This document shows positions 2,189-38,528 of a stretch of DNA of 64,000 nt, piece by piece (the first letter of the stretch is position 1; each line of letters begins with the position of its first letter). The stretch lies in IMG/VR virus record IMGVR_UViG_3300029813_000075, positions 9,554 through 73,553 of that record. One strand, written 5' to 3'. This DNA is from a virus. The position numbers and the translations under genes are program-made. Below the pieces are notes generated by a model that did no database searches, was not told the DNA's origin, and saw nothing but the letters and a program-made list of their open reading frames with translations.

Positions 2189-2263
2189 TTGATTTTAACT
2201 CCTAGTTAACTCCTTGTTAACATAGTTTCAAGTTACAATTCCGAAGAACTGCACGGTCTATTG

Positions 2264-2278
2264 TTACGCATTCCGTAA
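2264..2278. promoter_or_regulatory. Palindromic site TTACG-N5-CGTAA, copy 1
   Basis: TTACG-cattc-CGTAA between divergent ORFs 2188(-) and 2282(+). Confidence 0.65.
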
Positions 2279-2281
2279 TAA

Positions 2282-5200
2282 ATGTTACGACACCCCCCGA
2301 ATAATATCATAGTACTTAATAGACAGCCAAGCACATCTAACAGTTGGTTGTGCTGTGGATTGGCAACGAAGAGCATCTTCAAAAAGATAGGTCGTATAAA
2401 CTACGATACTATCAAAGGTGCTGACGCCTATACCCTAGCACGACACGGATCTGATAGACCTGGACCTTGGTTCCAAATGGTTGAGGGCATCATTCCGTAT
2501 CGACCATTCCATAGAACAACCACAGGGCACGATCACACGTATTTTATTTTGGACTTCGATATTGACATTCTTGATCCGCGACCACATCTCCAGCACAACC
2601 CACTTCTTTTGCGAGATGTTAAGATCAGAATAGGAACCAAATTCGTAAAGTCATGGCTTGACCAACATCCTGACTACCAGTTCTTCGCCAAGATCTCAGG
2701 TTCAGGTGTTCACCTTATCCAAAGATACGAAAGTCGAATTGATCCTCAGCGCATGCAACCAGTGGTCAAGCATCTATTCCCTCAGTGTGATCATGCCCCC
2801 ACATTTCCCAAAGACACCAAAGAACAGCCACACCTTTGTGACGAGACCTGCGCTGGTTGGCACTATCCATTTAATTACAACGAAGATGAGAAGGAATGGA
2901 ACCCCAACCTCAAACAATGGACTAAAGTCCTCAAGGTTGCTGGCATGACAGTTAGAATCAACGTAGACCTCAAGATGTTTGAAAGAATACACATGATCAG
3001 GTGGACTTACAGCAAGAACATGAAACTGCCTGACCGATTCAACTTCGCAATACCCATTACAAATTGGGATCCCGATTGGATACTCAAGCACATGTATCAA
3101 CAGAATCTACAAATCCTTTCCTATAGTATTCCTTCATTCCAATTCGAGGGACTACTACTACCTGAGGCCGAGATCTATCGACTGTACACCCGTCAGAAAG
3201 ATGCCAACTATGAAAAGTCTGATTGGTATTTTGTTGAAGTGCCTGATGTTGATGATGATCTGACAGACCTGCAAAAATATACTATTGAAAAGATTGATGG
3301 GCTATTATCTGCTGATGAAACAGTAGTCCCCCCCTGCGTATCTGCTTGGTATTCCAGATGCAAGAAGGGGAAAATCTATTGGGGGCGATATCCCTGGATT
3401 AAGTGGCTTGCAAACAAAGGCTATACCCCAGAAGAGATTGCACTGGTAATCAGATTCAAGGTGAATGATGCAGTCGATAATTCCGATAACAACAAGCATA
3501 TACTGCTCGAGCAGTTACCTCAAGTATATGGATCCCGATACAAGCCGTACCTCATGATGGGCTGTGCCAAACTACAGTTTCATGGTGAACCCACTAGCAT
3601 GGATATTAAGATTGCAGATGAAGAAATGTGCAAGACCTGCAGGAGAACGTACCCTCTTCAAAACTACCCTGACAAAACATTAGCAGGCGAGAAAGATGTC
3701 GGCTTTGAAAAGATCAACAAGCAATGCATAGATATCCTGGATAGTTTTGGATCTAACAATGTGGTTGTACGAAAGGCAACCAGGGCAGGACTCACCACTA
3801 CTATGATTCCTGTGGCTAAAGCACTTGGCAAGAAATTGTTAGTAGTGGTGCCAACAAACAGAATTGGCCGAGAGACCTTCGTCAAAGCTGTTGCCATATC
3901 AAAGGAACAGTTCAATGTCGAAGTACATGGTGCTATGTTTGCAGCGAACAAAAATGCCTGTCTTGTGTTGACAATCCTCAATAAAGGACTCAATGAAAAG
4001 AGACGTACTGACCCTGACCCTGCCTGGAGTAATCCTCTTGCCTGGAATGCATTGCGATATCACTCAAAACCTGTATGTGCAAACTGTAAGTATCGAACCG
4101 AAGAGTTCCCTGTTCCAATCCTTAATAGTGGCATTCCAGTACCAATGATTGACTCTGAGATCACTATGTATCTTAACGGCACTCGAAATAGCGAAGGCAG
4201 CTGTGCCTACATCACTCTATACAAGCAAATCAAGCACCTAGATGTGGTGTTCATTACCTATTCCAAGTTGTTTGCTCTATTCTCAACAGATTCTGATGAT
4301 GCTTATCATTTCAGAGAAGAACTGTTAGAATGCTTTGACGTAATACTGTTGGATGAGGTCTCCCACCTGACAAATCATTCTGCATTGTCACTACATTTAC
4401 TGAGACGTAGCACGCCTCTACCTTCAGATCCTCAAAGCCTGAAACATACAGAATATTCAAAGAACATTCTCTTGGCCTTAGAAGATGAGATCAATCAGAT
4501 GCTGGACTACCGGGACAACAGCACCAGCCAACAGATAGAGACCTTTGTACGTAAGTTCGTTACCTTCTATGAACCTCTATTAGACGATCCTATCACCACT
4601 CAAAAGACCCAACGAGTCGACAATTTCCTTGAATCTGGTGACAGGATGAGAATCATGGAAAACTTCTCGGGTTATCATGAACTAATAGAACGCGCAGCCA
4701 TTGATCACAATATTAGTCTGCACAATATTGAAGGCGTATTATTCCTATTGAATGAACCACAATGGATGCTCAGTTCCATACCAACCAAGTTTCACCCGGT
4801 TGACATTACTCTGATTACAGAACCTGCTACCAGGCATGTAAAAAGATTCGTGCGTGAGTTTGATAGAATGTACAACAAGCAGGTCATTATCACCGATGCC
4901 ACCATGCCCTACGTTAACATGCCTGATTTCTTTCAGATCAACTTTGAAAACTATGAAGTTGGTGATCCTCGAGGCACTAACAAGACACAGCTTGTGATTG
5001 CAGACTCGAGAAACTTGAACATTATTGATCTATTCTTCAACAAGGAAAGAAGTGGGCCATTGCAAACGGATCTGGCTGGATACATCAAACGAATTGCCGA
5101 AGCTCACGATCCAAAGAACATTATGATTGTTGCAGCCAATAAAGCCACAGCTGCACTGATTAGACATTTCATGAGAGATGATAAGATACCACGAATGCAA

Positions 5201-5875
5201 GTGACATGGTATAGATCTGACCTCACTATCGGGGTTGAATCAGACAAGAGAATCATGATATGTATATGCCCGCCATACCCCCCCAAGGGATCTCATGATT
5301 GGCTTGCATTCTATTATCACCTTGATGCACTGCACCTCAATGAGTCAGTCAGATATCTTGGTGATCAACTCTCAAAGACAAGCGCCAAAATAGCATTCTA
5401 TCAGGCCATAGGTCGAGCAAAAGACCCTGTTGTACGAGAGAGATCGGTTGTCTATTGTTGGGGCATCTCTGGTGGTCGAACCAGAATTGAAAGACGTGGC
5501 TCACAGACCGTAATCGAGATGATGGACTTCCAAGACAATGTACCAACACCTTATGTGTTCACAACCTCTCATAGAGATGCCAGAAGTGACAACATAATCA
5601 AAATAGCAAAAACTTGGCTAAAGTCTGGAGTCATTATAGATCCTGTCATGGTTAGAATGGTAGGTCATGTGCGTGAGAGAGGGAAACTTAGCATCTCTCA
5701 AATAGGGAGAATAATGCACATGCCCATCAGCAGACTTGAGAAACATATGACCGCTGATAACCTGCCCATATTCAAATATCTTGGAGTTGAGGTATTTGAA
5801 GAATTTTCTCCCAAATCAACTATCAAAAAAAGGTGGATGTTAAGATATGTCGGAGATGGTATTAGTAGGACATGA
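2282..5875 (+). CDS. Primase-helicase fusion: AEP (PriS) + PriL-CTD-like Fe-S domain + XPD/DinG-like SF2 helicase + C-terminal HTH
   Basis: AEP motifs LDFDID, ISGSGVH, D..R..YS.N; PriL-like PPC...GC.KL...C..C..YPL; SF2 motifs VVVPT, CAY..DVVFITYSKL, LLDEVSH, ITDAT, QAIGR. Walker A reads TRAGLT. True start probably a little downstream of 2282. Confidence 0.8.
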   Translation: MLRHPPNNIIVLNRQPSTSNSWLCCGLATKSIFKKIGRINYDTIKGADAYTLARHGSDRPGPWFQMVEGIIPYRPFHRTTTGHDHTYFILDFDIDILDPRPHLQHNPLLLRDVKIRIGTKFVKSWLDQHPDYQFFAKISGSGVHLIQRYESRIDPQRMQPVVKHLFPQCDHAPTFPKDTKEQPHLCDETCAGWHYPFNYNEDEKEWNPNLKQWTKVLKVAGMTVRINVDLKMFERIHMIRWTYSKNMKLPDRFNFAIPITNWDPDWILKHMYQQNLQILSYSIPSFQFEGLLLPEAEIYRLYTRQKDANYEKSDWYFVEVPDVDDDLTDLQKYTIEKIDGLLSADETVVPPCVSAWYSRCKKGKIYWGRYPWIKWLANKGYTPEEIALVIRFKVNDAVDNSDNNKHILLEQLPQVYGSRYKPYLMMGCAKLQFHGEPTSMDIKIADEEMCKTCRRTYPLQNYPDKTLAGEKDVGFEKINKQCIDILDSFGSNNVVVRKATRAGLTTTMIPVAKALGKKLLVVVPTNRIGRETFVKAVAISKEQFNVEVHGAMFAANKNACLVLTILNKGLNEKRRTDPDPAWSNPLAWNALRYHSKPVCANCKYRTEEFPVPILNSGIPVPMIDSEITMYLNGTRNSEGSCAYITLYKQIKHLDVVFITYSKLFALFSTDSDDAYHFREELLECFDVILLDEVSHLTNHSALSLHLLRRSTPLPSDPQSLKHTEYSKNILLALEDEINQMLDYRDNSTSQQIETFVRKFVTFYEPLLDDPITTQKTQRVDNFLESGDRMRIMENFSGYHELIERAAIDHNISLHNIEGVLFLLNEPQWMLSSIPTKFHPVDITLITEPATRHVKRFVREFDRMYNKQVIITDATMPYVNMPDFFQINFENYEVGDPRGTNKTQLVIADSRNLNIIDLFFNKERSGPLQTDLAGYIKRIAEAHDPKNIMIVAANKATAALIRHFMRDDKIPRMQVTWYRSDLTIGVESDKRIMICICPPYPPKGSHDWLAFYYHLDALHLNESVRYLGDQLSKTSAKIAFYQAIGRAKDPVVRERSVVYCWGISGGRTRIERRGSQTVIEMMDFQDNVPTPYVFTTSHRDARSDNIIKIAKTWLKSGVIIDPVMVRMVGHVRERGKLSISQIGRIMHMPISRLEKHMTADNLPIFKYLGVEVFEEFSPKSTIKKRWMLRYVGDGISRT

Positions 5876-8513
5876 ATATAATCCAAAGACAGACAATCCA
5901 ATCTACTGGTTCATTGACCTAGACAAACAAGTCATAGTGAAGCACTACATTCCAAAGTCTGATTCGGATTCATGTTTCAAACAAAAGGGTCTCACTGAAG
6001 TAGAGATCAGAAGCACAATTGAAGCCAAGGGTGGTAAAGATATCATCAAAGGCATTGATTGGATAACTCAGTACGATGTGTTGAGCAAACAGGAAATAAC
6101 AGTTGCCAGAGTGAGGCTCAAGTCAGCCAAACTTGTGGGCAAGTACAGACTCGAGACTTCTAATGAAGCCAACATCAAGCGCCCATATCGACACTCGTTT
6201 GACAAAACTTGGCTATATGGTCTAAATTACGACTCAAAATTTAAGAGAATCATCACACCAATTAATACGAAATACGAAAAAATGCTCGAAGGCCATGATA
6301 AATTGATACGAGATCGTATGTTACAGTGGACATTCACACCTCTTCCTAAAATCAAAAGAATGGCCCTTGACATTGAGACCCTATCACATGGCAAAGTGAA
6401 GCCCGATGTGAAAGAGGCACAAGAGCCTGTAATCAGTTGCGCCTTTGCCTATTCAGATAACCAGCCTGGAGAAGTGATTGTACTTAGTGCCAATGCAAGA
6501 GGACTGAAATATGAGGCCAAGTCAATGCCCATGCTCACCGAATGGATAAAGGGGGGTCTCTTGAAGGTCATAATAGTCCACAGTGAACATGAACTTTTAG
6601 AACATGTGTTCCAAAGAATCAGAAAACCTGGATATCCTCTCATCTCTACATTCTACGGCCTTGGATTTGATATGCCATATCTGAGAAATAGAGCACTTGC
6701 ACTTGGATTCCCTGAACATGAGATACCAATCAAGGGATACTTACCAAAGTTCTCGCGTCATGAATGGACTATTGAAATCGAGAACAAGATCCATCTTGAT
6801 CTCAATGTACATCTCAATCTATCCGTTATCAAAAATTATGTCCACAAAAACAAATATCTTGAAACTTCATTGGACAAGGTATCTCATGCACTGATTGACA
6901 TGGGGAAATACGAAAGTGACACTCCAATCAGTGAAATGCCTCTTAGTGAACTGGTGTGGTATAACTTCTGGGATGCATACCTCACTCAGAGATTGACTGA
7001 ATTTAACAATGAGATTGTGCTCAAAATCATCTTTCTGTTCATGCGTATTGGCAGACAGTCATTCAAAGATGCAGCTCACAGAGCAATTAGCAGTAAAATC
7101 ATTAATCTGCTCTACGGCTACATGATTGAGAACAATATTCTAATACCAACACGCGAAGATCTCAGGATCTTTGGTACATTGGAATCAGAGTCACGAACAA
7201 ACAAGTCATTCGAGGGTGCAAAAATCCTTGCTACCATCATGGGTGTACATATTGAAACTGACGTTGTGGACTTTTCAAGCTTGTATCCTTCACAAAACGA
7301 CAACTACAACATATCCTTTGAGACCATGAACTGCGGTCATGAAGAGTGTAAAAATGCAATCCATAATCAGATTCCAGAATTAGACCATTATTCCTGCATT
7401 AAGTATAGAGGTATCATGCCCAAGTTGATAGGCTTAATCAAGGATATTCGACTCAAGATCTTCAAGCCTCTTGCCAAAGACCCTGAAATGTCAGCAGTTG
7501 AACAGGCACTCAAGGTCTACATTGTTGCTGCCTTTGGAGTCACAGGTGATAAGAAGTTCAACCTATACTGTCCACCTGCAGGCGAATCAACCACAGCACT
7601 AGGTAGGTACGCCCTTGATCGTCTGCAAGAGAAGGCCGAGTCATATCCTGGAGTGACAGTTATCTTTGGTGATACTGATTCAGTAGGTCTAGTGGGTGCC
7701 ACTCCTGAGATCATCAAGGAACTTGAAGAGTGGTCTCAACGAGTGCTAAACATCGAACTGACACATGAATATCATGCCCTAATCTTTGTCATAGCGGCCT
7801 CTAAATCCAAGAAAGATGAAGGTCTAAAAAAGAACTACTTCTATGTTGAGGAAGGCACCTACAAAGTAGTGGTCAAGGGTCTCGCAGGTAAGAAACGACA
7901 AACACCACCAATCATATCTCAATGCTTCTGGGACTGTCTCAATGGCATTGCTAACGCATTGAAAGACATTGGTGAGGGCATTCACTCACTTCCTAAAGAG
8001 GTAATTGTTGCTGGCGCACGAGAGATAGTAATTCAAATCGTGCGCGACTATTGGGTCAGGATATGGAACCGTAAGGGAACCATCAAGGACTATAGATACA
8101 GCGTGCAAAAGACAAAGACATTTGCTGAATACACAGCATCTACACCACAACACATCAAAGCTGCACTATCTCTTGCCAAATGGATAAAGTCAACTGCCGG
8201 AGATGCATACAGACATGTGCCACCCGAAGTATTGGTTCCCTACGGATCTTACATTGAGTTCGTCAAATCGGCAGCCAGTGACAAGAGAAAGACTCCCAAA
8301 GAACTCACATCAATCAAGAAACATGGCATTAAGATCAATCCAATGCCCATTGAGATGGCTACCATAGAAGATGTTTGTCCTGAGATATATCATTCATCCC
8401 TGCTTTCAACAATGGAACAGATCATGATCCCTCTTGGCATCGAGGAAAAGGATGTAGTCATTCACATGAACGATCCTTTTGGTAGCCAAACATCATTGGA
8501 ACAGTTCACTTAG
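5847..8513 (+). CDS. polB: Family B DNA polymerase, archaeal PolB1-like, with 3'-5' exonuclease and C-terminal PIP box
   Basis: ExoI LDIET, ExoII GFDMPYL, ExoIII YNFWDA; motif A DFSSLYPS, motif B QALK....AFG, motif C FGDTDS, KKNY; PolB1-type ETMNCGHEEC...HYSC insert; ends QTSLEQFT. Confidence 0.97.
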   Translation: MSEMVLVGHEYNPKTDNPIYWFIDLDKQVIVKHYIPKSDSDSCFKQKGLTEVEIRSTIEAKGGKDIIKGIDWITQYDVLSKQEITVARVRLKSAKLVGKYRLETSNEANIKRPYRHSFDKTWLYGLNYDSKFKRIITPINTKYEKMLEGHDKLIRDRMLQWTFTPLPKIKRMALDIETLSHGKVKPDVKEAQEPVISCAFAYSDNQPGEVIVLSANARGLKYEAKSMPMLTEWIKGGLLKVIIVHSEHELLEHVFQRIRKPGYPLISTFYGLGFDMPYLRNRALALGFPEHEIPIKGYLPKFSRHEWTIEIENKIHLDLNVHLNLSVIKNYVHKNKYLETSLDKVSHALIDMGKYESDTPISEMPLSELVWYNFWDAYLTQRLTEFNNEIVLKIIFLFMRIGRQSFKDAAHRAISSKIINLLYGYMIENNILIPTREDLRIFGTLESESRTNKSFEGAKILATIMGVHIETDVVDFSSLYPSQNDNYNISFETMNCGHEECKNAIHNQIPELDHYSCIKYRGIMPKLIGLIKDIRLKIFKPLAKDPEMSAVEQALKVYIVAAFGVTGDKKFNLYCPPAGESTTALGRYALDRLQEKAESYPGVTVIFGDTDSVGLVGATPEIIKELEEWSQRVLNIELTHEYHALIFVIAASKSKKDEGLKKNYFYVEEGTYKVVVKGLAGKKRQTPPIISQCFWDCLNGIANALKDIGEGIHSLPKEVIVAGAREIVIQIVRDYWVRIWNRKGTIKDYRYSVQKTKTFAEYTASTPQHIKAALSLAKWIKSTAGDAYRHVPPEVLVPYGSYIEFVKSAASDKRKTPKELTSIKKHGIKINPMPIEMATIEDVCPEIYHSSLLSTMEQIMIPLGIEEKDVVIHMNDPFGSQTSLEQFT

Positions 8514-8554
8514 AAGAAGGCGGGTTCCCTTTGGCTGGTTCCAAGCACATTTAC

Positions 8555-8768
8555 TCGGAGCCGACTCCGACACCTCAGGGATCCCATTGGTGGAGAGAGC
8601 CGTACGAACTCTCTCCGTTGTGTTTTTGGGCATTTGAAAGGAGGGTGCCTGGAGAAAGTTAGACACCCTCTTGGTGGAATGTCGAGATGGAGCAGTGGTG
8701 GAGTTTGGCAACAATGAGCGAAAGAATGTCGGAAGACGACAAAAAAACGCTCCACTGCATCCAATCTC
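8555..8768. ncRNA. Candidate structured RNA or ssDNA element with four stem-loops; strand unresolved
   Basis: Stems 8555-8570, 8592-8616, 8641-8670 and a nested stem 8684-8768 in a gap with no credible ORF. Confidence 0.45.
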
Positions 8769-8816
8769 TGACCCTATTATATCGTAATAAACTAATAAGT
8801 TCAACGGTTTTGCTCA

Positions 8817-9236
8817 TTATATTCTCGCATTTACTAAATATTGGGGATATTTGGCTCGAATAATAGCAACCATGTCCTTGACTCGATGATTGGCAGTCGC
8901 TTCTTTCAAGGACTGAATCTTCTCCATGATTTGTACATCCAAATCTTGTTGTTCTAAAAGATCTCTTCCTGAGTCGGCCAATTCAAAGAGATGGATATTA
9001 CCCGCCCTATAATGTTTCACATGGCCTTGGTCAATCAGAGAGTTGAATTGTTCTGCAACTACAGTGGAGTAAGGGCCAAACTGATAGGGGAAAAATTTGA
9101 AGTCGGCCTTCTCTTTGGCTATCTCTTTCGCAATCAAGAACAGTTGATGCACAACTTTGGTCTTGCCCTTAACGGGATCGCCTTGGAGCAGAGCCAAGAT
9201 ATAGGATTGGACTGTCATATACATCACCCATTGCAA
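8817..9236 (-). CDS. YwgA/DUF4065 (Panacea/SocA-like) winged-helix protein
   Basis: KGKTK...LFLI, FKFFPYQFGPYS signature, LIDQGHV...FELADSG. Confidence 0.65.
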   Translation of the reverse strand: MQWVMYMTVQSYILALLQGDPVKGKTKVVHQLFLIAKEIAKEKADFKFFPYQFGPYSTVVAEQFNSLIDQGHVKHYRAGNIHLFELADSGRDLLEQQDLDVQIMEKIQSLKEATANHRVKDMVAIIRAKYPQYLVNARI

Positions 9237-9982
9237 AAGTCTGAGAGCTTTGCCTGGTCGTGCAACGGAAATTCAATGCCTAGCCTTCGCGCAAGATTTA
9301 CTGATCGTAGCCACGTCATTGGTTCCTTTTTTCTCATACCAGGAAAGACACAAAATACAGGACATATGTTACACCCTGTACTCTGGATTCCGCCAAAGCC
9401 ATGTTCATCCAGAATCATGTCGACATCCCTATCCGAGCAGTCACGGAGAGGATAGTAATACATCCGACTGTTACGCTTGTGAACTCGAATGAGTGTATCC
9501 TGATTACGTAGTTCGGCCATCCGAAATCTTCTCATCTTCGCCCCATCAGAACCCTTGAGACCAAGTACCAGCACCACATCATCATCGAGCAAATCTATGT
9601 AATTGTCCATTGGCTTCTTCTTCAGCACATGACAACAATAGAAGTAATTCTTGTAAAATTTCCCTGTATCCTTCTTCTTCTTCAAAACCCGGGGGATCTG
9701 TTTGAATGACTCCTGAAGTATGTCTCTGATTGGCCTGTCACCATCATATTTCGTAGTCACAAGTTCATAGCCTGTCAACTCTTGAAGTCGGTGCAGAACA
9801 TCTTTGGCTCCACCTCTATTTAGACCAGTATCATTGAATGCCATGACTACATCCTTAATGTCAACATTCCAAGCTTCAAGCACCATAGCTGTTGAGTCAC
9901 GACCACCACTTGCCAAAATCACCACCTTGCGATTGGTTGGTAATTGGCTATAGTCGGGTCTATGAACAACCATTCCTCTCAA
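9224..9982 (-). CDS. PAPS-reductase-family (PP-loop) protein with PIP-like C-terminus
   Basis: ASGGRDS PP-loop, NDTG, CCHVLKKKP, LGLKGSDG..R, YPL.D, TGCNICP; ends QAKLSDFCNG. Confidence 0.88.
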   Translation of the reverse strand: MRGMVVHRPDYSQLPTNRKVVILASGGRDSTAMVLEAWNVDIKDVVMAFNDTGLNRGGAKDVLHRLQELTGYELVTTKYDGDRPIRDILQESFKQIPRVLKKKKDTGKFYKNYFYCCHVLKKKPMDNYIDLLDDDVVLVLGLKGSDGAKMRRFRMAELRNQDTLIRVHKRNSRMYYYPLRDCSDRDVDMILDEHGFGGIQSTGCNICPVFCVFPGMRKKEPMTWLRSVNLARRLGIEFPLHDQAKLSDFCNG

Positions 9983-10341: not shown

Positions 10342-10395
10342 TTTGATTCACTCAATTCTTGACACCGAAATATTATACCGATTGACTTATAATAT

Positions 10396-10410
10396 TTACG
10401 GGACTCGTAA
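10396..10410. promoter_or_regulatory. Palindromic site TTACG-N5-CGTAA, copy 2
   Basis: TTACG-ggact-CGTAA between divergent ORFs 10341(-) and 10419(+), next to TTATAATA. Confidence 0.65.
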
Positions 10411-10418
10411 TAACTACC

Positions 10419-10643
10419 ATGCCAACTCCCAAAGACCTCATTAGGGACATTGACAGACTTCTTGCTGATGCAATGTCACCACTCACATTCATGAGACATG
10501 TTCTAAGTGAAGGTTCCCACACTGGAAGCATAGAAATAAACCCAGACCAATGGGATACGATGATTACCAGTTCAATTCGCAAGCTTGAAGAAATGCGCGA
10601 CAGAGTGAAACGCTATGCCAAAGAAAGAAAGAAAGTGGCTTGA
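10419..10643 (+). CDS. Hypothetical protein
   Basis: 74 aa, first gene of the plus-strand operon. Confidence 0.6.
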   Translation: MPTPKDLIRDIDRLLADAMSPLTFMRHVLSEGSHTGSIEINPDQWDTMITSSIRKLEEMRDRVKRYAKERKKVA

Positions 10644-10797: not shown

Positions 10798-10803
10798 CAA
10801 CAA

Positions 10804-10869: not shown

Positions 10870-10884
10870 CCTTATGGTGATCAC

Positions 10885-18706: not shown

Positions 18707-19169
18707 ACCACTCCATAGTCCTCACCCAAATATCACACCACTTGTCAAAAGGAAGAGTCAGATCCATTGGTGACTCTATGAATGCAGCGTCAATGTCGGC
18801 TGAATCCCAAGTAGTGAGAAACACCCGCCATCTCAGGTCTTTGCCTGACGGTGCCACAGTGACAGGGTTTATCCTTGCTAAGAATTTCCTAGCTCTCTTC
18901 TTATCACGCTTGAACAACTCAGACATGACTACCATGACCTCGAGTTGACACTTGTAACTGAACACAAGTGACCGCCCTTTAGTATAGACGGCCAATGGCT
19001 TAATGCTCCTTGACAGCTCTTTGCTAATCTTGTCAATCACCCAATTGCGCGTCTTGGGTTTCTCATTGACACCCTTTCGCTTCCGTTTCCGGGGTTTGTC
19101 AAGCACTCCTGGTCGTGGGTCTTCCATGCGCCTGTGCGGTCTCATTAATCTTGGAAACTTACGCCCCAT
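18693..19169 (-). CDS. Basic hypothetical protein
   Basis: 158 aa, Arg/Lys-rich N-terminus, overlaps neighbours. Confidence 0.6.
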   Translation of the reverse strand: MGRKFPRLMRPHRRMEDPRPGVLDKPRKRKRKGVNEKPKTRNWVIDKISKELSRSIKPLAVYTKGRSLVFSYKCQLEVMVVMSELFKRDKKRARKFLARINPVTVAPSGKDLRWRVFLTTWDSADIDAAFIESPMDLTLPFDKWCDIWVRTMEWYDNE

Positions 19170-19587
19170 TCACAACATCTCCAAGCGCATCCTTGAATTG
19201 TGGATGCATGATTATGTCCAAAATCCCGGGTTCATCAAGAGCAGGTGTAGGGATATCTGCATACAAGTACCATCTATACTTGTCATAGAGATATTTCTCA
19301 CAGATCTCCTTCGCCACATCCATGCCTTCAGCAGTCAACTTATACTTGCCACGTGGCTGGATCAATTCTAAGAGTCCTCTTGCCACCAATGCCTTCACTG
19401 TATCCCAACACTGGAAGGTATCATCCTTCGTATCATGGAACCAGGCAAGTCTCCGAATGTGAGTAAACCTCAATTCATTATAATACTGCAGACACTTGAG
19501 AATAATCTTCTGCCTATATCCAAGTCCACTACCGCCCTTGGTCTTGGTGGGTGGGAAGTGGCTATATGGCATCATTTGACCACCCAT
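19159..19587 (-). CDS. Winged-helix DNA-binding protein
   Basis: IILKCL...LRFTHIRR...VKALVARGLLE...YKLTAEG pattern. Confidence 0.65.
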   Translation of the reverse strand: MGGQMMPYSHFPPTKTKGGSGLGYRQKIILKCLQYYNELRFTHIRRLAWFHDTKDDTFQCWDTVKALVARGLLELIQPRGKYKLTAEGMDVAKEICEKYLYDKYRWYLYADIPTPALDEPGILDIIMHPQFKDALGDVVNGA

Positions 19588-23190: not shown

Positions 23191-23206
23191 CGTAATAATT
23201 ATTTAA
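23191..23206 (-). promoter_or_regulatory. Archaeal TATA-like box plus a half-site of the palindrome
   Basis: Minus strand TTAAATAA-TTATTACG, about 21-36 nt upstream of ATG 23170. Confidence 0.55.
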
Positions 23207-29284: not shown

Positions 29285-29295
29285 TGTGATATCTC

Positions 29296-29794: not shown

Positions 29795-29828
29795 GTTTGC
29801 ATCCTGTATATGCACGAGGTTCACAACA

Positions 29829-30035
29829 ATGAGCACAGCAATCACACCCATCACACCCATAACACACAAGGATAGACTTAATGACATCATCCACCGTGCT
29901 ATCTCATGGGCGCAAGATCGCGGCATCTCACATGATGATATCGCTTCTATCCTTGTCGAAGAGTACAACGATCTTAATGTCCACTTCTGGGATCATCATG
30001 ACTATGACTCCATCGTGGAAACAATACGATCCTAG
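29829..30035 (+). CDS. Hypothetical His/Asp-rich protein
   Basis: 68 aa downstream of the TATA-like box. Confidence 0.55.
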   Translation: MSTAITPITPITHKDRLNDIIHRAISWAQDRGISHDDIASILVEEYNDLNVHFWDHHDYDSIVETIRS

Positions 30036-30168
30036 ATTTCAAACCCGACCCGCTCTTGCACACATAACCTGCCCAAGACGCTTGGCAGGTCGGGAAAATC
30101 TATGAGATTTGCGATGGGATATTACGGGGTTGATGTTATTGGTGTGTGTGGAGGGGCAGTCGGCATAT

Positions 30169-30189
30169 TTATTACGGAAATAGTAATAA
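30169..30189. promoter_or_regulatory. Palindromic site, one-mismatch copy
   Basis: TTATTACG-gaaat-AGTAATAA upstream of the long plus-strand block. Confidence 0.55.
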
Positions 30190-30206
30190 TAGGGGGATGA
30201 TGAATT

Positions 30207-30524: not shown

Positions 30525-30536
30525 GGGCTGAAGGAC

Positions 30537-31308: not shown

Positions 31309-31311
31309 AGA

Positions 31312-31434: not shown

Positions 31435-31444
31435 GCAGCAATCA

Positions 31445-31768
31445 ATGAGCAATAAGCAGACATTCAAAGCGTTTGGCACGAAGTTCAACAATATACCGCT
31501 GTATTCCATAGTGCAGGAGAACAAGATCTGGCCGGATGATAAGTTTCTGCTGTCACTGTTCAAGAGCGGTGTGTACTGGTCTGACTCAAGCGATCTGACC
31601 AAGATGGAATTGCTGAGTGGCGTGTTACAGAAATTGGTGTTGGGCATGGACAATTCAACGATTCAGGCGGGCGAGAACGAGAAGGAGCAGAGGTTGATAG
31701 GCATATTCGGCACCCTGAAAGAGATTACAGGGCGGATCGCAGAGAAGCTTGTCGAGGTACCATTATGA
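31445..31768 (+). CDS. Hypothetical protein
   Basis: 107 aa. Confidence 0.6.
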   Translation: MSNKQTFKAFGTKFNNIPLYSIVQENKIWPDDKFLLSLFKSGVYWSDSSDLTKMELLSGVLQKLVLGMDNSTIQAGENEKEQRLIGIFGTLKEITGRIAEKLVEVPL

Positions 31769-31914
31769 ACATGACGTGTCCTAAGTGTGGCGAAGAAGTC
31801 AGCCTCTATGACGGTGACATTGAGATATGGTCGATAGGCGAGAGGCAGGTCACGGTGCGTCATGTGAGTATAAAATGTGACGGCAAGTGGAACTACAAGA
31901 GGAAGGCAAGATGA
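31765..31914 (+). CDS. 49-aa CPxCG microprotein, not in track
   Basis: MNMTCPKCGEEV...; ATGA overlap with the upstream gene. Confidence 0.55.
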   Translation: MNMTCPKCGEEVSLYDGDIEIWSIGERQVTVRHVSIKCDGKWNYKRKAR

Positions 31915-32027
31915 ACGATGGGGCGGGAAACACGAGGACTAGCGCGGTTAGGGCTGTCAGAGATGCATCTTTGCCTTAACGGGCTTGACACCTGTGCCTG
32001 ACACCCCTAAAGGAAGGAGAAAGAACA

Positions 32028-32333
32028 ATGAGTGAAAAAGAACCTGAAATGACGGCATCAACGTGCCCAAGGTGTCAGGCCAGAACCACGAGAGAAAGGG
32101 CGAAGGCAAAGAAGAAGTATCTCAGGATGGTTTGTGGAGTGATGTATGAGATGGATGAGGTAGTGTGCCCGCACTGCGGATTGTACTACCTGGATGCGCG
32201 ACCCGAAGAGGATAATGAAAAGGGTTGTGAAACACATAGTTGTGCTACATGTGGCACTCTCGAACCAGATGAGCATTGTATGGACTGTACTCATTATCCA
32301 AGTAGGAGTTGCCACTGGACACCAAGAGGATGA
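32028..32333 (+). CDS. Cys-rich zinc-binding protein
   Basis: CPRC, CPHC, CATC, CMDC. Confidence 0.65.
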   Translation: MSEKEPEMTASTCPRCQARTTRERAKAKKKYLRMVCGVMYEMDEVVCPHCGLYYLDARPEEDNEKGCETHSCATCGTLEPDEHCMDCTHYPSRSCHWTPRG

Positions 32334-33178
32334 GAACAATGAGTAATGAAACATTTGAGAGAATGAATGAATGGTTCGGGCGAGCACTTGGAGCTGCGGA
32401 TTTCGATCTGCGGTTGCAGGATAAGGAAAAGGGCAAGAGCTGGAAAGAGGCTACTCCACTATCTCTGTTCAACAAGATGATGGGTCACGTCAATAAGATG
32501 ATGAATACAAACCCAAGGGTGGGTCAGGTGCATTCAATCAAGGTTGTGAACTATGCGTTGATGATCGCCACACGACTTGTTGATGAGAATGTGGCCGTAG
32601 AACCTAAACCTGAGAAGATTATAGTCAGGGAAGTCAGAGAAGTCATACACCCACACACAGGTCACACGGAATCGAATGTTGAATTTGGGCCGCCTATAAT
32701 AGCAGGAAAAGATGAATCAGATCCCATTGTCGAAACAGGAAGGCCGCCTTTGGATCTTGGCCCTTTACCCAATGGGCCTGCAATAGAAGCCTTTTCAACT
32801 ACACAGGTTGACACTGCGGGAGACCTTCTGAAGGCTGACTTGCGTGGAATGTATGAACCTAATGGGTCTGAGGATGCAGGATATTACTGCCCTTGGTGTA
32901 ATCACACTGCAAAGTTGGCTACGGGTTGTCATGGCAAGATCTGCTGCATCGCGTGCGGCAAGCCAATCGACTCGAGGTTCGCAGACTTGCTGAAAAAGGC
33001 ACGGCAATCCGATTATGTGGCTTTGAAAAAACCAATCACTTCAGCAGAGATGGCAAAATATCTTGGCACATCATCCAATTGGGCTGGTCAGGTGTTGGCG
33101 CAGCTTGGATGGGAATCAGCAGGATGGCGTAAGGGATTGGGAGCACGATGGAACCCACCGAAGGAGGATGGCAAGTAA
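32309..33178 (+). CDS. Multidomain protein: degenerate MazG-like helical domain + zinc finger + HTH
   Basis: SW....L...M..V......VVNYALMIA; CPWC..CIAC; ITSAEMAKYLGTSSNWAGQVL. Confidence 0.6.
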   Translation: MPLDTKRMRTMSNETFERMNEWFGRALGAADFDLRLQDKEKGKSWKEATPLSLFNKMMGHVNKMMNTNPRVGQVHSIKVVNYALMIATRLVDENVAVEPKPEKIIVREVREVIHPHTGHTESNVEFGPPIIAGKDESDPIVETGRPPLDLGPLPNGPAIEAFSTTQVDTAGDLLKADLRGMYEPNGSEDAGYYCPWCNHTAKLATGCHGKICCIACGKPIDSRFADLLKKARQSDYVALKKPITSAEMAKYLGTSSNWAGQVLAQLGWESAGWRKGLGARWNPPKEDGK

Positions 33179-33771
33179 TGGGATGGCCTGGACTTGGATT
33201 TGGAATGGGACCGCCCAACATGAGTCTGCCTCTTGGTGAGTATAGGATCTGCACTGCATGCGGCGGCCTGAGAGGATGGTTGATCATCATGCCCAAGATT
33301 GTCGGTGGTCCGGCTGAGCTGCTGGGTCGCCTTGAGGATGAGGATACCACAGTGCTGTGTACGAGATGCAGCGAAGGAAAAATCAGTGGTTTGGATCCAA
33401 AATTTGTTGAGAAGGCCGAACCGAGGGTGATTCCGTTCTGGAAGTACCTTAAGGATGATAGGTTCCCAATCAAGATGATTTCAATAGAGGCGAGAGAGGC
33501 AATGGATGGCCGCGGTCTTACGCCTTACGACTTCATTGTGAAGATCAACTGTGAGGTTGTGGAACGTCTGAGAAAGGTGGAGATGAGTGCATGGATTGGT
33601 GAGCCTGGCGTTGAGTTGGCACTTACCTTTGTCCACCACATCTTTGATGATGATGGCAACCTGAAAGAACTCAAGCATGAGAAGCTTCAACTGGACAAGG
33701 AAAAGATTAGGGGGTTTAGTTTCAATCTTGTGAAGATTGACGACATAGTGGAGGATAAGAAAAATGGTTAG
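33148..33771 (+). CDS. Hypothetical protein with CxxC pairs (likely start ATG 33178)
   Basis: CTACGG...CTRCSEG. Confidence 0.6.
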   Translation: MEPTEGGWQVMGWPGLGFGMGPPNMSLPLGEYRICTACGGLRGWLIIMPKIVGGPAELLGRLEDEDTTVLCTRCSEGKISGLDPKFVEKAEPRVIPFWKYLKDDRFPIKMISIEAREAMDGRGLTPYDFIVKINCEVVERLRKVEMSAWIGEPGVELALTFVHHIFDDDGNLKELKHEKLQLDKEKIRGFSFNLVKIDDIVEDKKNG

Positions 33772-34090
33772 CACGAAAGAAGAACTAGAGAATATGGTGG
33801 TCACAGTGCTAGAAAGTCCTAGCATTGCGATTGGTGATGCGAGAGTGACAGTCTCTATTGGGAATGGAGAATCTGTGATCATTGAGACGCATAATGTCGC
33901 TAACGGTGAGAAGTACATAGTCAGTTTCCCTACAAGAGATTGTGAAGATCAAAGCCAAAGGTTGACGCTGAACACAATACTGTATTTTGTGCGATTGGCT
34001 TTGCAGACATCAATTGTGGTGGCTGAGAACGCTGGGGGGTTGAAGGCCAAACTGAAACTGATTGATACTATGACTGAGGCGCCTGAGTAG
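33764..34090 (+). CDS. Hypothetical protein
   Basis: 108 aa; tiles within the operon. Confidence 0.6.
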   Translation: MVSTKEELENMVVTVLESPSIAIGDARVTVSIGNGESVIIETHNVANGEKYIVSFPTRDCEDQSQRLTLNTILYFVRLALQTSIVVAENAGGLKAKLKLIDTMTEAPE

Positions 34091-34102
34091 AGAGTTGGTA
34101 GC

Positions 34103-36022
34103 ATGAGTCTGCGCGATAAGCTCGACAATCTGGATGATCTGTATGACGAGATTGAGTCTGACATAGACAAGAAGAAACGAGCCATCAAACAGAGAATGAC
34201 TGATCTCGAGGATCAGGAAATGTTCGGCACCTTTGAGTCAGATCTTGTCAAGGAGTTTCTTAACAAGCCATATGTTATACTGCCACGTGGCACGAAGGAA
34301 CAGGAGTGGTTGATGATCATTCCCAAGTTCTTTGACTTCAACGTTGGATGGCTGTTGCAAAGCACTGATAGTTACAATGTGTTCATTGTCAACAAGTACG
34401 CTGACTACCTGGGGGCTGTGCCTAAGGAGTTCCAGGGACTGTTCAAGTTCAAACCACGAATGCCGCTCAAGGTACTCGATGGTGTCATGCTGACGGGTGA
34501 GGACCATCAGGATGCTGCCTGGGAGAGATACAAACGTTTCCTCTCAGCCAGGAAGGGATCTGACGCCATTCGTATTAAGAAGGGCAAAGCATTTGATCTG
34601 ATTGCTGCGTTGATTGATGATGGCATTCTTCCATTCATGCGTAAGCCAGTGGCAAAGGAGCACAAGAAAAGGTCAGTGTGGACACTTGGGCATCTTAGTA
34701 CGGATGCCATGAAGAATGTAATGACAAGATTAGAGATGAAATTCTTCAAGGATGCTATGAGCAAGTTCTACAAGACAGGCGCAGTGGGTGTCTATTGGGC
34801 GACAGGCGTGGGCAAGACTCTGATTGGCCTAGAGGTACTTAGCAGCGTGCGGGTAGATGATCGCCCCAATGTGGTGATTAGTGGCACCAGTGCGGCCTTA
34901 CAATTACAGTGGCAACAGAGATTGAGCAGTGTCAAGTTAGCTGCCGAGACCATAGTGGTGCCCTTCCAGAGCTGGCACAAGATCAAAGATATCGATGTGG
35001 GTGTCATGATTATAGACGAATGCCATCATCTTCCAGCTAATTCATTCAGTAAGATCGCCACCATGAACTGTGAATATCGAATGGGCCTTTCTGCCACTCC
35101 GTACCGAGAGGATGGTAGATCTGACTACATCTTTGCCCTGACAGGATTCCCCATTGGTTTGGATTGGAAGGTGTTGATTGATTTGGGTCTCATTATCGAA
35201 CCCGAAATTACATTGTACCTGAGTGCTAACTATGCTCAGAAACGCAAGAAGTTGGGCGAGTTGCTTAGAGATCCAGTAAAGACACTGATCTATTGTTTCA
35301 GTGTACAAGAGGGCAAGTCGTTGAGTCGTGAGTTCAGCATTCCTTTTGTGTATGGTGACACGCCAGTGAAAGAAAGACTCGAGATTATCAAGAACAGCCA
35401 TCAGACCATAGTTAGCAGTGCTATGGGCGAGGGCATCTCTGTAAGGAACATTCAGAGAACCGTGACTTACAACTTCTTGTTTGGTTCTAGGCAGGAAGAG
35501 ACGCAGTTCTTTGGCCGTCTGCTACATGGTGTCGAGAAGGGCAAACATGTCATTCTAATGACGGATGATGAGTATGAGAGGTACGGCAAGCGTCTCTATG
35601 GCATTCAGGAAAAGGGCTTCAAGATTGCAGTGATTCGAGTTGGCGGGTCTGTAAGAGCCTCGAGGCCGAAGCCTGCACCTAGACCTAGACCTAGAGCAAG
35701 ACTTGATACACCGTTTCCAGTTTCTCATTTAAGATCAGAGAAGGTTGAACCTAAGGTGACTGTCGATAAATCGCATAAGTATCCATTTCTTGATGAGAGA
35801 GATGATTTCAGTGAGAGTATGATTGTGAGGATATTGCAGTCTGACTATGCTAAGGAAGAGAGAGGGCTGACAGTGGCTCAGATCAAGAAGATTCTTGATC
35901 ACTATCATGTCGATTATGGTAAGTGGCACAAGATTAGAAACACTGTCAGGAAACTGTACGATAAGAGAGATATTGGTGCTAAGAGAGAAGGCAAAGCACG
36001 CAGGTATTTCATGACGGAGTGA
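34103..36022 (+). CDS. SF2 helicase, XPB/Rad25-like, with C-terminal winged helix
   Basis: ATGVGKT, IIDECHH, GLSATPYREDG, EGIS, QFFGRLL. Confidence 0.88.
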   Translation: MSLRDKLDNLDDLYDEIESDIDKKKRAIKQRMTDLEDQEMFGTFESDLVKEFLNKPYVILPRGTKEQEWLMIIPKFFDFNVGWLLQSTDSYNVFIVNKYADYLGAVPKEFQGLFKFKPRMPLKVLDGVMLTGEDHQDAAWERYKRFLSARKGSDAIRIKKGKAFDLIAALIDDGILPFMRKPVAKEHKKRSVWTLGHLSTDAMKNVMTRLEMKFFKDAMSKFYKTGAVGVYWATGVGKTLIGLEVLSSVRVDDRPNVVISGTSAALQLQWQQRLSSVKLAAETIVVPFQSWHKIKDIDVGVMIIDECHHLPANSFSKIATMNCEYRMGLSATPYREDGRSDYIFALTGFPIGLDWKVLIDLGLIIEPEITLYLSANYAQKRKKLGELLRDPVKTLIYCFSVQEGKSLSREFSIPFVYGDTPVKERLEIIKNSHQTIVSSAMGEGISVRNIQRTVTYNFLFGSRQEETQFFGRLLHGVEKGKHVILMTDDEYERYGKRLYGIQEKGFKIAVIRVGGSVRASRPKPAPRPRPRARLDTPFPVSHLRSEKVEPKVTVDKSHKYPFLDERDDFSESMIVRILQSDYAKEERGLTVAQIKKILDHYHVDYGKWHKIRNTVRKLYDKRDIGAKREGKARRYFMTE

Positions 36023-36399
36023 TAGAGATGCTGAATGTAGTCCAATGTCCTAAATGTGATAGAGATATGATTTGTGAGAGCTTTTCAACAGAAGGTATTT
36101 GGTCATATCGTTTGAAATGTCCTAATGGGCACATCTGGACCTTACAAGAAGTGAAAGATGAGCCTAAGCTGATAGATACTTGCACATTCTGCGGGAAGCC
36201 TCTCTATGATGGTGATGATTGGACTAACTACCTACCAAAGGAGATAGTCATAAAGAAGGGACAAGATGCAGCAGATGCTTACATGCATCGTATATGTAGA
36301 GCCATATGCCCCAACTGCGAAAGAGTCCATCCTACCAGTAGGCATCAGCATGATGGTATTATATGGGCCAGACTCAAGGAGGAATACAAAGATGGGTGA
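36019..36399 (+). CDS. Multi-zinc-finger protein
   Basis: CPKC..CPNGH; CTFC..HRIC; CPNC..H. Confidence 0.65.
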   Translation: MIEMLNVVQCPKCDRDMICESFSTEGIWSYRLKCPNGHIWTLQEVKDEPKLIDTCTFCGKPLYDGDDWTNYLPKEIVIKKGQDAADAYMHRICRAICPNCERVHPTSRHQHDGIIWARLKEEYKDG

Positions 36400-36925
36400 A
36401 GAACCGAAGCCAATTGGCACTGACGACTGTGGCGAATACTACTTCGAGCATGAGAGTGACGAAGAAGTGATGGCATGGATTGACGCACATGATCCTAAGT
36501 CCAAGAGGTTCATGAAAATGGGTCATGATTTCGGTGACAAGATGGTTCCAGGAAGAGGCATTTTGAAAGAGGATGTGACATGGCGGGTGTATGAAATTGA
36601 AACATATCTTGTCTATTCCAAGAGATGCACTAAGGTACGACTCTGGCGTCAAATGTACCCAGACACTCCGTTTCCTCATGAGATTGACATGGACAGAATG
36701 AAATTTTGGCGCATGTGCAAAAAGAGACCCATAGTAGTTCAGGTCAGAGATGTTAGACCCGATGAAAGTGAGGTGGAGACCTTGGAAGGATTCAAACCAT
36801 GTGACCCGAAGGTGCATTACATAATGAAGGGTGTGGATGGTGAGGAATACCCAATTACGAAAGAGATATTCGATAAGACGTATGATATGATAGTGTTCGA
36901 CTTTGACGACAAATGGGGTAATTAA
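36392..36925 (+). CDS. Phage protein with C-terminal PGDYG-like domain
   Basis: KKRPIVVQ...ETLEG...YIMKGVDGEEYP.....FDKTY; ATG at 36392. Confidence 0.7.
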   Translation: MGEEPKPIGTDDCGEYYFEHESDEEVMAWIDAHDPKSKRFMKMGHDFGDKMVPGRGILKEDVTWRVYEIETYLVYSKRCTKVRLWRQMYPDTPFPHEIDMDRMKFWRMCKKRPIVVQVRDVRPDESEVETLEGFKPCDPKVHYIMKGVDGEEYPITKEIFDKTYDMIVFDFDDKWGN

Positions 36926-36927
36926 CT

Positions 36928-37215
36928 ATGATGTTCGATGAAAGACGTGATCGCACACAGGACAAGGGTTGTTGTGTGGTCTGTGACAGATGTACGTGGT
37001 TTGCTAGGGCGGGCCAGTTCTATAAGATAGGTGACAAGATGTTCTGTCTTGAACACTATCTTAAGGCAAGGGTGCTGTACCTTGGTTCATCCACACCGCC
37101 TGAGTCCCTAGACCCGATAGTTAACAACCTCAAGAAGCAATGGCGCGCTTCTACTAAGTCTGGCAAGAAGAGCAAGAAGTCCAAGAACAAGGCAAAGCCA
37201 ATCAAGGCAAAGTGA
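36928..37215 (+). CDS. Small zinc-finger protein with basic tail
   Basis: CDRC...FCLEH. Confidence 0.6.
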   Translation: MMFDERRDRTQDKGCCVVCDRCTWFARAGQFYKIGDKMFCLEHYLKARVLYLGSSTPPESLDPIVNNLKKQWRASTKSGKKSKKSKNKAKPIKAK

Positions 37216-38224
37216 AAGGATGCTTCGCAAAGTACGGCTTCCATAGGTTGGCGTAATGGTCTCTGATTGAGTATTCTACCGTGTCTGTTATCTCACCGTA
37301 TAACTTCTGTGACGGTATCTTTGAACATATCAGTTGGGAAACTGCATAGCATAGAGATACAGCCAATATCTTCGGATTCTTCCCAACGTAGTCGCGGGGA
37401 GTTAATTCATCAGCAACAATTCTGACTGCCTTTTTCAGTTTCTTAAAGAATTTGCTATGGTCTTCGCCCTTTCTTTCTATCCTGTCAGTCAACACAGGAC
37501 TTCTCTCAAGATCGGAGATCATCTTGGGTATCCATTTCTTGAATGATGCTGCCATATGGAATGTGATATCCATATTGTCTTGCATCCACACCTTGTATCT
37601 GGTAAGATAGCGGGGTTTACTATTTGGTATATACACGTCAAGCACCTGCTGATCAGAGAATGGTGCTCTTCGCTTTCTCAGCACTGCCACCAGGCATGTG
37701 CAACCAAGTCTGGCGTTATTGACGAACATGTCAGGAGACTTCAATTTCATTTGCTTTTTGGTCTTTTGAAGAAGATATGAAGCCTCATCTCTAATGGAGT
37801 ACGATATCCCGAGCACTGAGCATGTTCGATTGAGCCTTATCAGGGATCTAAACAATGGTTCATTGGAACCGATCTTGGTACTCATCTCGTATCTGTATTT
37901 CAGTCTGCGGAACTTTGTTTGATTGGCTGGATGCAATGGCTTACTAGCAGCGTCAAAGAATCGTCTCTTTGCATGGTGCCCCATGTAGCTCCCCATTCCA
38001 TCAATTATGTTTGGGCGATTCCCAATCGACACAAACTGAGTTGCTGGAGGTTTGTTCTGTTTTATGATTTCGCCTGCTTGATATGTTGGATTGACCATAA
38101 TCCGATCATGGACTGTCCCACATGTATCACAGACCATGTATCCATTGATTCTATCATGGGTGAGTCCACTACCGCAGTGTTTACATATTCCGTTCCCTGG
38201 CTTCACTTGTATTTGCATTGTCAT
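37202..38224 (-). CDS. tfb: Transcription initiation factor TFB (TFIIB family)
   Basis: Zn ribbon CKHC..CDTCG.V, B-reader-like DGMGSY.G, two cyclin folds (RTC..LG...IRDEA; GKNP..LA...Y), C-terminal HTH SQK...VEYSIRDHY; likely ATG 38224. Confidence 0.92.
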   Translation of the reverse strand: MTMQIQVKPGNGICKHCGSGLTHDRINGYMVCDTCGTVHDRIMVNPTYQAGEIIKQNKPPATQFVSIGNRPNIIDGMGSYMGHHAKRRFFDAASKPLHPANQTKFRRLKYRYEMSTKIGSNEPLFRSLIRLNRTCSVLGISYSIRDEASYLLQKTKKQMKLKSPDMFVNNARLGCTCLVAVLRKRRAPFSDQQVLDVYIPNSKPRYLTRYKVWMQDNMDITFHMAASFKKWIPKMISDLERSPVLTDRIERKGEDHSKFFKKLKKAVRIVADELTPRDYVGKNPKILAVSLCYAVSQLICSKIPSQKLYGEITDTVEYSIRDHYANLWKPYFAKHPFTLP

Positions 38225-38444
38225 TACATTCCACCGATTTGACATATTTATCAACAAATTCAAGACGTTGCATCCCCTTTGCCCAAACTCGAGGGGGGTA
38301 ACATTCATAGCAGCTTAGTGCTACTATGATGGTGTCAGTCTTGGGAAGCAGATTGATGCTATTGACATTTGGAGTGCCACCACACGAACAGATGTTATCG
38401 AGTGCGATGGCTATCTTGTCAATGTCAACTTTTTCTTTGCTCAT
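38181..38444 (-). CDS. Small zinc-binding protein
   Basis: CSCG...CYEC; first gene of the TFB operon. Confidence 0.55.
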   Translation of the reverse strand: MSKEKVDIDKIAIALDNICSCGGTPNVNSINLLPKTDTIIVALSCYECYPPRVWAKGMQRLEFVDKYVKSVECNDNANTSEARERNM

Positions 38445-38504
38445 TGTTGTCCCACACTGGCATGAGATTGGTCACTCATAAATGTTAGTGTTTGAAAACC
38501 TTTT

Positions 38505-38519
38505 TTACGTACCGCGTAA
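38505..38519. promoter_or_regulatory. Palindromic site TTACG-N5-CGTAA, copy 3
   Basis: TTACG-taccg-CGTAA between the TFB operon (-) and the morphogenesis block (+). Confidence 0.65.
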
Positions 38520-38528
38520 TTACTACGA

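Follow-up and report, generated by a model that had tools for sequence, protein, structure and literature searches.

How are the operons of an uncultured archaeal tailed virus switched on and off, and does a short palindrome that recurs at the heads of these operons serve as a docking site for a regulatory protein or as part of the promoters themselves? This question is raised by a 64,000-nucleotide stretch of DNA (here the window), which corresponds to bases 9554-73553 of a 76,135-bp viral record in IMG/VR (IMGVR_UViG_3300029813_000075), and by the sequence TTACG-N5-CGTAA within it. A preliminary description of the window noted perfect copies of this palindrome between divergently transcribed gene blocks and offered two explanations, a dimeric regulator site that coordinates the main operons or back-to-back core promoter elements used with a viral TFB. 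Here the whole contig was analysed; coordinates with the prefix G000:C1 refer to the whole contig and all others to the window. The palindrome is the core of a larger symmetric element found at six sites, for which we see an even chance that it is the operator of one dimeric regulator embedded in promoters.

The three perfect copies (sites C, D and F in the table) and the one-mismatch copy at site E are all present, intergenic and located at strand switches, as had been described; a further one-mismatch copy, at 59419, is intragenic. Shuffled sequences gave an expectation of 0.00 perfect copies, with none of 100 shuffles reaching even one, and with 35 and 34 half-sites in the 76 kb an expectation of 0.016 is calculated for the N5 spacing; the preliminary description had estimated about 0.07 per 64 kb. 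The two arms do not occur at any other spacing from 0 to 15, and in an unbiased scan of all palindromes with 5-bp arms and spacers of 0 to 12 the sequence TTACG-N5-CGTAA ranks first (Poisson p = 6e-7). The relaxed core TTAC-N7-GTAA is found eight times in the contig versus 0.53 expected, with enrichment only at spacing 7, and six of the eight copies are intergenic in a contig of which at most 8.3% is non-coding (binomial probability of about 8e-6 by our own arithmetic). Four of these six lie in the window and two (sites A and B) just to the left of it, where they had been missed. A half-site matrix derived from the 12 half-sites assigns scores of 22.8 to 27.4 to the six sites, which are its own training data, whereas the next best place reaches 14.4 and shuffled genomes 12.4 at most; because of this gap the six sites form a discrete set. 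The shuffles, the relaxed-core count, the unbiased scan and the matrix gap rule out a chance origin of the element. A restriction-modification target is likewise ruled out, as the motif is enriched rather than avoided and is restricted to promoter gaps. In the contig the motif is enriched and mainly intergenic, and it is conserved in related viruses, the opposite of the similar frequency in coding regions and the lack of conservation that the preliminary description had named as evidence against a regulatory role.

Conservation among the half-sites reaches well beyond the arms. All 12 share T-W-D-TTAC, with T at position -10 from the centre and T or A at -9 in every case, neither of which was imposed by the search, and because this conservation extends to -10 the element is a two-fold symmetric unit of ~27 bp with the form W-rich/T-W-D-TTAC-(G)-N5-(C)-GTAA-H-W-A/W-rich. 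G is found at -3 in 8 of the 12 half-sites, so that CG is kept in the same number. The arm centres are 10 bp apart, which is one helical turn; the two-fold symmetry and the spacing of half-sites by about one turn that are looked for in an operator are thus present, with perfect 5-bp arms and an N5 spacer at three sites.

Table. Positions of the palindromic sites, isolated half-sites and two associated genes (window coordinates unless prefixed G000:C1)
Feature	Position	Strand	Sequence	Context
Site A	G000:C1:293-307 (left of window)		TTACG-N5-GGTAA	between two same-strand genes; 90-aa protein adjoins
Site B	G000:C1:2709-2723 (left of window)		TTACC-N5-AGTAA	heads Salactin-like operon
Site C	2258..2284, core 2264-2278		TTACG-cattc-CGTAA	symmetric T/A-rich flanks
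Site D	10390..10416, core 10396-10410		TTACG-ggact-CGTAA	TATA-like run at ~10387-10398 overlaps left arm
Site E	30166..30192, core 30172-30186		TTACG-gaaat-AGTAA (one mismatch)	at 29968/30207 strand switch
Site F	38499..38525, core 38505-38519		TTACG-taccg-CGTAA	between 87-aa/TFB-like operon (minus) and Zn-ribbon gene
Isolated half-site	8783..8790	-	CGTAATAA	in convergent gap after polB; points into 8514-8770 non-coding stretch
Isolated half-site	23191..23198	-	A/T run + TTATTACG (minus reading)	21 nt upstream of ATG 23170
74-aa gene	10419..10643	+		directly downstream of site D; ATG 8 nt past core; predicted helical hairpin
TFB/TFIIB homologue, 340 aa	37202..38224	-		second gene of leftward unit at site F

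Five of the sites coincide with the five clear strand switches of the contig, and site A stands in a tandem context. The switches separate a Zn-ribbon/helicase block from the Salactin-like operon, a 575-aa gene (461-2188, minus) from the primase-helicase/PolB operon (site C; PolB is the family-B DNA polymerase), a PAPS-reductase block from methylases, a long minus-strand block from a helicase block, and the TFB gene from the structural genes, whose operon is headed by the Zn-ribbon gene to the right of site F. A T-rich run overlaps the outer arm on the side of the adjacent gene (tatatTTAC, taatatTTAC, atatttaTTAC, cttttTTAC), and although both flanks are T/A-rich, a convincing T-rich box is found on only one side at each site. 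In four settings the element is followed by the start codon after 8-11 nt, namely at site A (in G000, G001 and G004), at site D (in the window and ten relatives), at site F (GTG 38529, 9 nt past the core; an ATG at 38538 follows at 18 nt) and at site B of G004, and in these cases the flanking T/A box stands ~25-27 nt before the start codon. This is the distance expected for archaeal leaderless genes, and the promoters at sites A, D and F fit this type. The distance to the start codon is longer at sites B, C and E than at A, D and F; at B and E the ATG is located 18-20 nt past the element (20 nt for ATG 30207 at site E, where the arms extend to 8 bp, TTATTACG / AGTAATAA) behind G-rich Shine-Dalgarno-like runs. 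Sites D and F also have separate TATA-like boxes suited to the leftward genes, while at site C the leftward 575-aa gene has a single TATA-like run available, the one that abuts the right arm. No canonical TTTAWATA box was detected in any intergenic region of the contig, the only matches overlapping at one coding place near 52745, and other apparent promoters of the contig do not carry the element. Both explanations of the preliminary description, the dimeric site and the core promoter, continue to lead, but the back-to-back geometry that went with the latter conflicts with the short distance from element to start codon, which is 8-11 nt at sites A, D and F and 18-20 nt at B and E: outward-facing promoters are ruled out for five sites, since their transcripts would begin within or past start codons only 8-20 nt away. 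The fitting TATA-like box is on the far side, and transcription would therefore cross the palindrome.

The contig of the virus encodes PolB, PCNA, helicases, DNA methyltransferases and a portal protein, the only relatives of which in the phage database belong to haloarchaeal tailed viruses, and the closest cellular PolB matches are contigs of archaeal metagenome-assembled genomes (29-34% identity). From these features and the TFB homologue it follows that the virus is an uncultured archaeal tailed virus of marine sediment, and near-relatives are present in marine-sediment and cold-seep metagenomes. Homologous sites were found in G001, G002, G004, L006, L007, L016-L018, L031-L032 and L037-L046 (handles for related genomes and metagenomic loci), where at sites A, C, D, E and F the arms are retained while spacers and flanks diverge, down to ~50% PolB identity. 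The arms of site F are identical in L004, L006 and L007, whose TFB proteins are 96, 70 and 85% identical to that of the window, with variation at two spacer positions; L007 has unrelated DNA on one side. Around site C, five close relatives have an identical 35-nt block between flanks that vary, and at 52-53% PolB identity the same place holds TTATC-N5-GGTAA (L017, in which this degenerate copy at the primase site is the only one) or TTACC-N5-GATAA (L018), the spacers being unrelated. At site D, neither the core nor the right flank nor the ATG varies among ten relatives in which the adjacent 74-aa protein is 69-86% identical, and because this ATG is conserved the promoter geometry at the site is fixed; L046 has an unlike upstream gene in tandem orientation, yet it retains the A/T box and CTACG-ggact-CGTAA. 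For site E, contigs of three metagenome runs align only over a 31-37-nt island within 30152-30197, both flanks being unlike the window. G004 (53% PolB identity) contains exactly two copies of TTAC-N7-GTAA, which are the intergenic counterparts of sites A and B and have TTACC/TTACT as preferred half-sites, as opposed to TTACG here. Site A is symmetric, with no divergent gene, in three genomes (G000, G001 and G004). Drift around conserved arms is therefore the rule among the relatives, site B in G001 excepted, and the same consensus stands at several promoters and at matching places in related viruses, as in a repeated viral promoter cassette. No comparable palindrome was found in the distant viruses G003 (31% PolB identity) and L008 (28% TFB identity).

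If the element is an operator, it would form part of six promoters, which together stand at the start of nearly every transcription unit of the virus. The TATA-like run would overlap the end of the outer arm on the driving side, with the core filling the gap between this box and the transcription start, which is predicted ~10 nt past the element for three leaderless genes. A putative dimeric regulator would sit over the TATA-proximal and start region and switch most viral operons together. As the element lies over this region, the regulator would most likely be a repressor that blocks recruitment of TBP/TFB or RNA polymerase, and with sites in front of the operons for replication, modification, TFB and structural proteins, the switch would be genome-wide. 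Arms that are one helical turn apart are the layout of homodimeric winged-helix or helix-turn-helix regulators, and it is the 10-bp distance between arm centres, matching this layout, that argues for a dimeric operator; binding by a protein dimer, repression and the positions of the transcription starts are what we infer. The symmetry would not serve divergent transcription only, because sites D and F have their own leftward boxes and because site A and the L046 site are non-divergent.

A protein that could bind the element may be encoded by the operon at site B (G000:C1:2742-4685, locus L029), which is situated just upstream of the large terminase and comprises genes for an actin homologue, a 110-aa protein and a 166-aa winged-helix protein. 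The first gene specifies a Salactin-family actin homologue of 367 aa (PF25229, E = 4.7e-25). The third, at G000:C1:4185-4685 and hence outside the window, specifies the only recognisable candidate for sequence-specific DNA binding in the searches of contig proteins, with homologues in the motif-bearing relatives G001 and G004. Its sequence gives weak matches to MarR and DnaD_N; AlphaFold predicts a helix-helix-helix-wing fold with a predicted local distance difference test score (pLDDT) above 90 over residues 11-90, and Foldseek returns nearly exclusively dimeric winged-helix repressors (DtxR/IdeR, PcaR, MarR, Fur) with weak E values (4e-3 to 3e-2). As the binder of the element this protein is a speculative lead, and we hold the assignment to be tentative. 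Its C-terminal tail (ERKGTKK.LGDA) is invariant even in a 41%-identical homologue and recalls ParR-type adaptors. A predicted complex of the actin homologue with the winged-helix protein scored 0.32 versus 0.00 for the best control, which counts as weak, as do all passes up to 0.60; the mark of 0.32 was reached by 58 of 80 solved complexes and by 2 of 110 mismatched pairs. Runs agreed in at least 55% of contacts, with a partner pLDDT of at least 56. The site B operon resembles an actin-type partition module, here in a tailed archaeal virus, and would thus point to maintenance as an episome. That one winged-helix protein binds all six palindromes, acting both as global repressor and as actin-filament partition adaptor in an episomal carrier or lysogenic state, is a reading to which we give little credence. 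Another protein, of 139 aa (8817-9236, minus; conserved in relatives), has only weak matches, to DUF4364 and in PHROG; by eye it shows an FGPY motif like that of Panacea/SocA-type antitoxin domains, and for this reason it was set aside as a regulator.

Several observations weigh against an operator. Positions +/-3 (G/C) differ among the sites, and site B has lost one base of the right arm in the close relative G001. Pfam searches of ~75 contig proteins, mostly small, gave no helix-turn-helix or ribbon-helix-helix match above threshold, and PHROG searches of contig proteins gave none either, leaving the winged-helix protein at 19159 and the ribbon-helix-helix protein at 19572, suggested earlier as binders, with no backing from either database; the sequence and fold matches of the candidate binder are all weak. 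The virus was found in no RNA run, and the transcription starts are predicted ones. With no TTTAWATA in intergenic DNA, T-W-D-TTA may simply be the TATA box of this system. Both flanks are TATA-like, and starts predicted at +/-18 from the centre agree with the 36-bp class of archaeal bidirectional promoters, which needs no dedicated factor.

The last two points are the heart of a different account, namely that the element is a symmetric, so-called crossed bidirectional core promoter with no regulator of its own. Here each T-W-D-TTA flank would function as the TATA box for transcription across the palindrome and, at about -10, as the A/T-rich proximal element for transcription the other way, so that divergent starts would be separated by ~36 bp. 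A class of bidirectional promoters with divergent starts at this distance has been described in Thermococcus kodakarensis (Warman et al., 10.1101/2020.01.31.928960). Five of the six sites are located between divergent genes, both flanks are T/A-rich with an invariant T at -10, the intergenic DNA lacks canonical TATA boxes, the leftward gene at site C has no other TATA-like run than the one at the right arm, and the half-site at 23191 is at TATA distance from a start codon. Binding of TBP, however, would leave the invariant inner C/G (TTAC/GTAA) and the CG of 8 of 12 half-sites unexplained; site A keeps its symmetry in three genomes with no divergent gene to serve, site D of L046 is in tandem, the leftward genes at sites D and F have separate TATA-like boxes, the element is missing from the other apparent promoters of the contig, and lone half-sites are rare. 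We consider the crossed promoter, the main rival of the operator, rather unlikely; the operator and its rivals are not mutually exclusive.

The preliminary description had also invoked a viral TFB, and in this respect the protein is real, while nothing links it specifically to the element. Profile searches match it to TFIIB (E = 0.005) and to the TFB of Pyrococcus woesei (E = 0.056), and its AlphaFold model (pLDDT 67.7) has TFIIB, TFB or Brf as all 36 of its top 36 Foldseek matches, with E values down to 1.7e-6, which together indicate a diverged but genuine homologue. TFB genes have been reported in a few archaeal viruses (PMC13700489). One encoded beside site F, in a genome where canonical intergenic TATA boxes are absent and the element keeps a fixed spacing to the TATA-like box and start codon, could act as a sigma-like switch, the inner arm being a non-canonical core element contacted by the viral TFB in a position like that of a downstream TFB recognition element (BRE), just past the TATA-like box. 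This we judge improbable: TFB binds as an asymmetric monomer and does not predict a perfect two-fold palindrome, upstream of the T/A box no BRE-like run of purines is conserved, and with the gene for TFB itself located behind a site, host factors must be able to use the element. A role in segregation only, in which the palindromes are dispersed centromere-like sites, the winged-helix protein is a ParR-like adaptor and transcription is not involved, seems very improbable indeed. Its attraction is the position of site B directly upstream of the actin gene, with the winged-helix gene after it, along with the invariant tail of that protein and the weakly supported complex (0.32). Known actin-type centromeres, though, are repeat arrays at one locus and not single sites at every promoter, and no such parC-type array was found beside the actin/adaptor operon, which has a single copy, the others being dispersed at promoters; the fixed distances to TATA-like boxes and start codons point to transcription, and site B, which should matter most, is the copy that is decaying in G001.

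Repeated promoter or operator cassettes are already known from crenarchaeal and haloarchaeal viruses, and the element is therefore not a new principle. Examples are the early-gene consensus of SIRV2 with Aca8 and the inverted repeats of SMV2 with a putative leucine-zipper repressor (PMC11065993), and the promoter-carrying intergenic repeats of halovirus HF2 (PMC8707807). As in these viruses, several promoters of one genome share a short consensus around or abutting the TATA box, and both its sequence and its position are conserved among related viruses; coordinated control by a virus-encoded factor is presumed or shown there and predicted here. Unlike those cassettes, the present element is a strict two-fold palindrome with symmetric T/A flanks that lies between TATA-like box and start rather than a BRE/TATA consensus, it serves nearly all operons including the structural one rather than a set of early or anti-defence genes, and it belongs to a marine-sediment tailed virus with another host and of another lineage, one that has no canonical TATA boxes and encodes its own TFB. 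A cellular counterpart is the Thermococcales glycolytic motif TATCAC-N5-GTGATA, located downstream of the TATA box and bound by TrmBL1/Tgr. That operator has the same arm-N5-arm layout and size, the same placement between TATA and start, which implies blocked RNA polymerase recruitment, and one regulator (here putative) for many promoters; the viral element differs in arm sequence, in being viral and in its outer arm overlapping the TATA-like box, and no TrmB-family protein was found among the contig proteins. The likeness to the 36-bp class of T. kodakarensis consists in a predicted pair of T/A boxes, one on either strand at a distance of ~17 bp, each of which would drive transcription across its partner, mostly between divergent genes. 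That class, however, has mapped starts and ordinary TATA/BRE sequences, whereas the starts here are predicted, the inner C/G is conserved and one site is non-divergent. With regard to segregation, the nearest parallels are ParR/parC of ParMRC actin-type systems and AspA of pNOB8. Here too an adaptor-like gene is downstream of one for an actin-like ATPase, and the palindrome just upstream of the operon could autoregulate it; in contrast to ParMRC, there are single dispersed promoter sites instead of a local array and a winged-helix instead of a ribbon-helix-helix protein, and the actin contact is weakly predicted.

Very little is known about transcription in tailed viruses of uncultured sediment archaea, and a compact handle on it is offered by a 27-bp site that is found at the head of essentially every transcription unit of an ~80-kb virus and is conserved throughout a lineage seen in many marine-sediment and cold-seep metagenomes. 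As an operator it would amount to an on/off switch for the whole genome, possibly one connected with lysogeny or a carrier state, and would provide a route to the regulator; as a symmetric core promoter it would be a natural case of archaeal promoters of the crossed bidirectional type that use a non-canonical TATA box. Under either reading, operon starts can be annotated in related viral contigs.

The individual sites give rise to some further observations. To the right of site C, ATG 2282 was rejected as the start of the 1197-aa primase-helicase open reading frame, being out of frame in L005 and L016 with a 1-nt indel at 2296 in relatives; gene callers place the beginning 65 aa further on. 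The gene truly starts downstream, and 2282-2340 is probably a leader. Close relatives also keep a third TTACG, situated at 2285 and 21 nt after the first. For the proteins adjoining sites D (74 aa) and A (90 aa), an atlas look-up yielded only a helical hairpin in one case and no entry in the other. The isolated half-sites at 8783 and 23191 are present where the preliminary description had placed them, and lone half-sites are rare overall. The one at 23191 looks like a promoter with only one arm, and the one at 8783, with which the non-coding stretch after polB ends, could likewise be one-armed, as a minus-strand promoter that points into this stretch. Within this stretch (8514-8800), for which there is no Rfam match, relatives have indels at 8696-8731 (6, 2 and 11 nt at 8721-8731). 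Relative L017 (52% PolB identity) has clear TTTATATA promoters elsewhere in its DNA, along with repeated AGTTTATATAC promoters that have long leaders.

Rfam and tRNA scans of the window gave no matches, nor did a scan of metagenome contigs with the PAPS-reductase-like protein as query. A second palindrome, TCAAG-N6-CTTGA, occurs in six copies versus 0.36 expected (window positions 2010, 17610, 23629, 31334, 35883 and 57460), all of them within coding regions on either strand; a codon or peptide pattern may account for it, or it may be a methylation target, and it is unrelated to TTACG-N5-CGTAA. Loci L016 and L038 turned out to be the same ENA contig, NODE_7 (83,683 bp), with polB at one end and the 120-aa and 74-aa genes of site D at the other; for this reason the relative behind it probably has a genome of ~84 kb that is circular or terminally redundant, with the assembly break in what corresponds to the 8.5-10 kb region of the window. 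The 70%-TFB relative L006 carries an IS605 OrfB/TnpB-like gene (5102-6229) between its portal and TFB regions that has no equivalent in the window. PolB is 1216-1222 aa long in several close relatives (P0010, P0012 and P0021; loci L031 and L032) versus 888 aa in the window, and homing-endonuclease Pfam families are on record for the PolB of P0010 and P0021 (LAGLIDADG_3 in both; Hom_end in P0010), the matches for P0010 being faint, which suggests that the long PolB of these relatives carries a putative intein that the 888-aa protein lacks.

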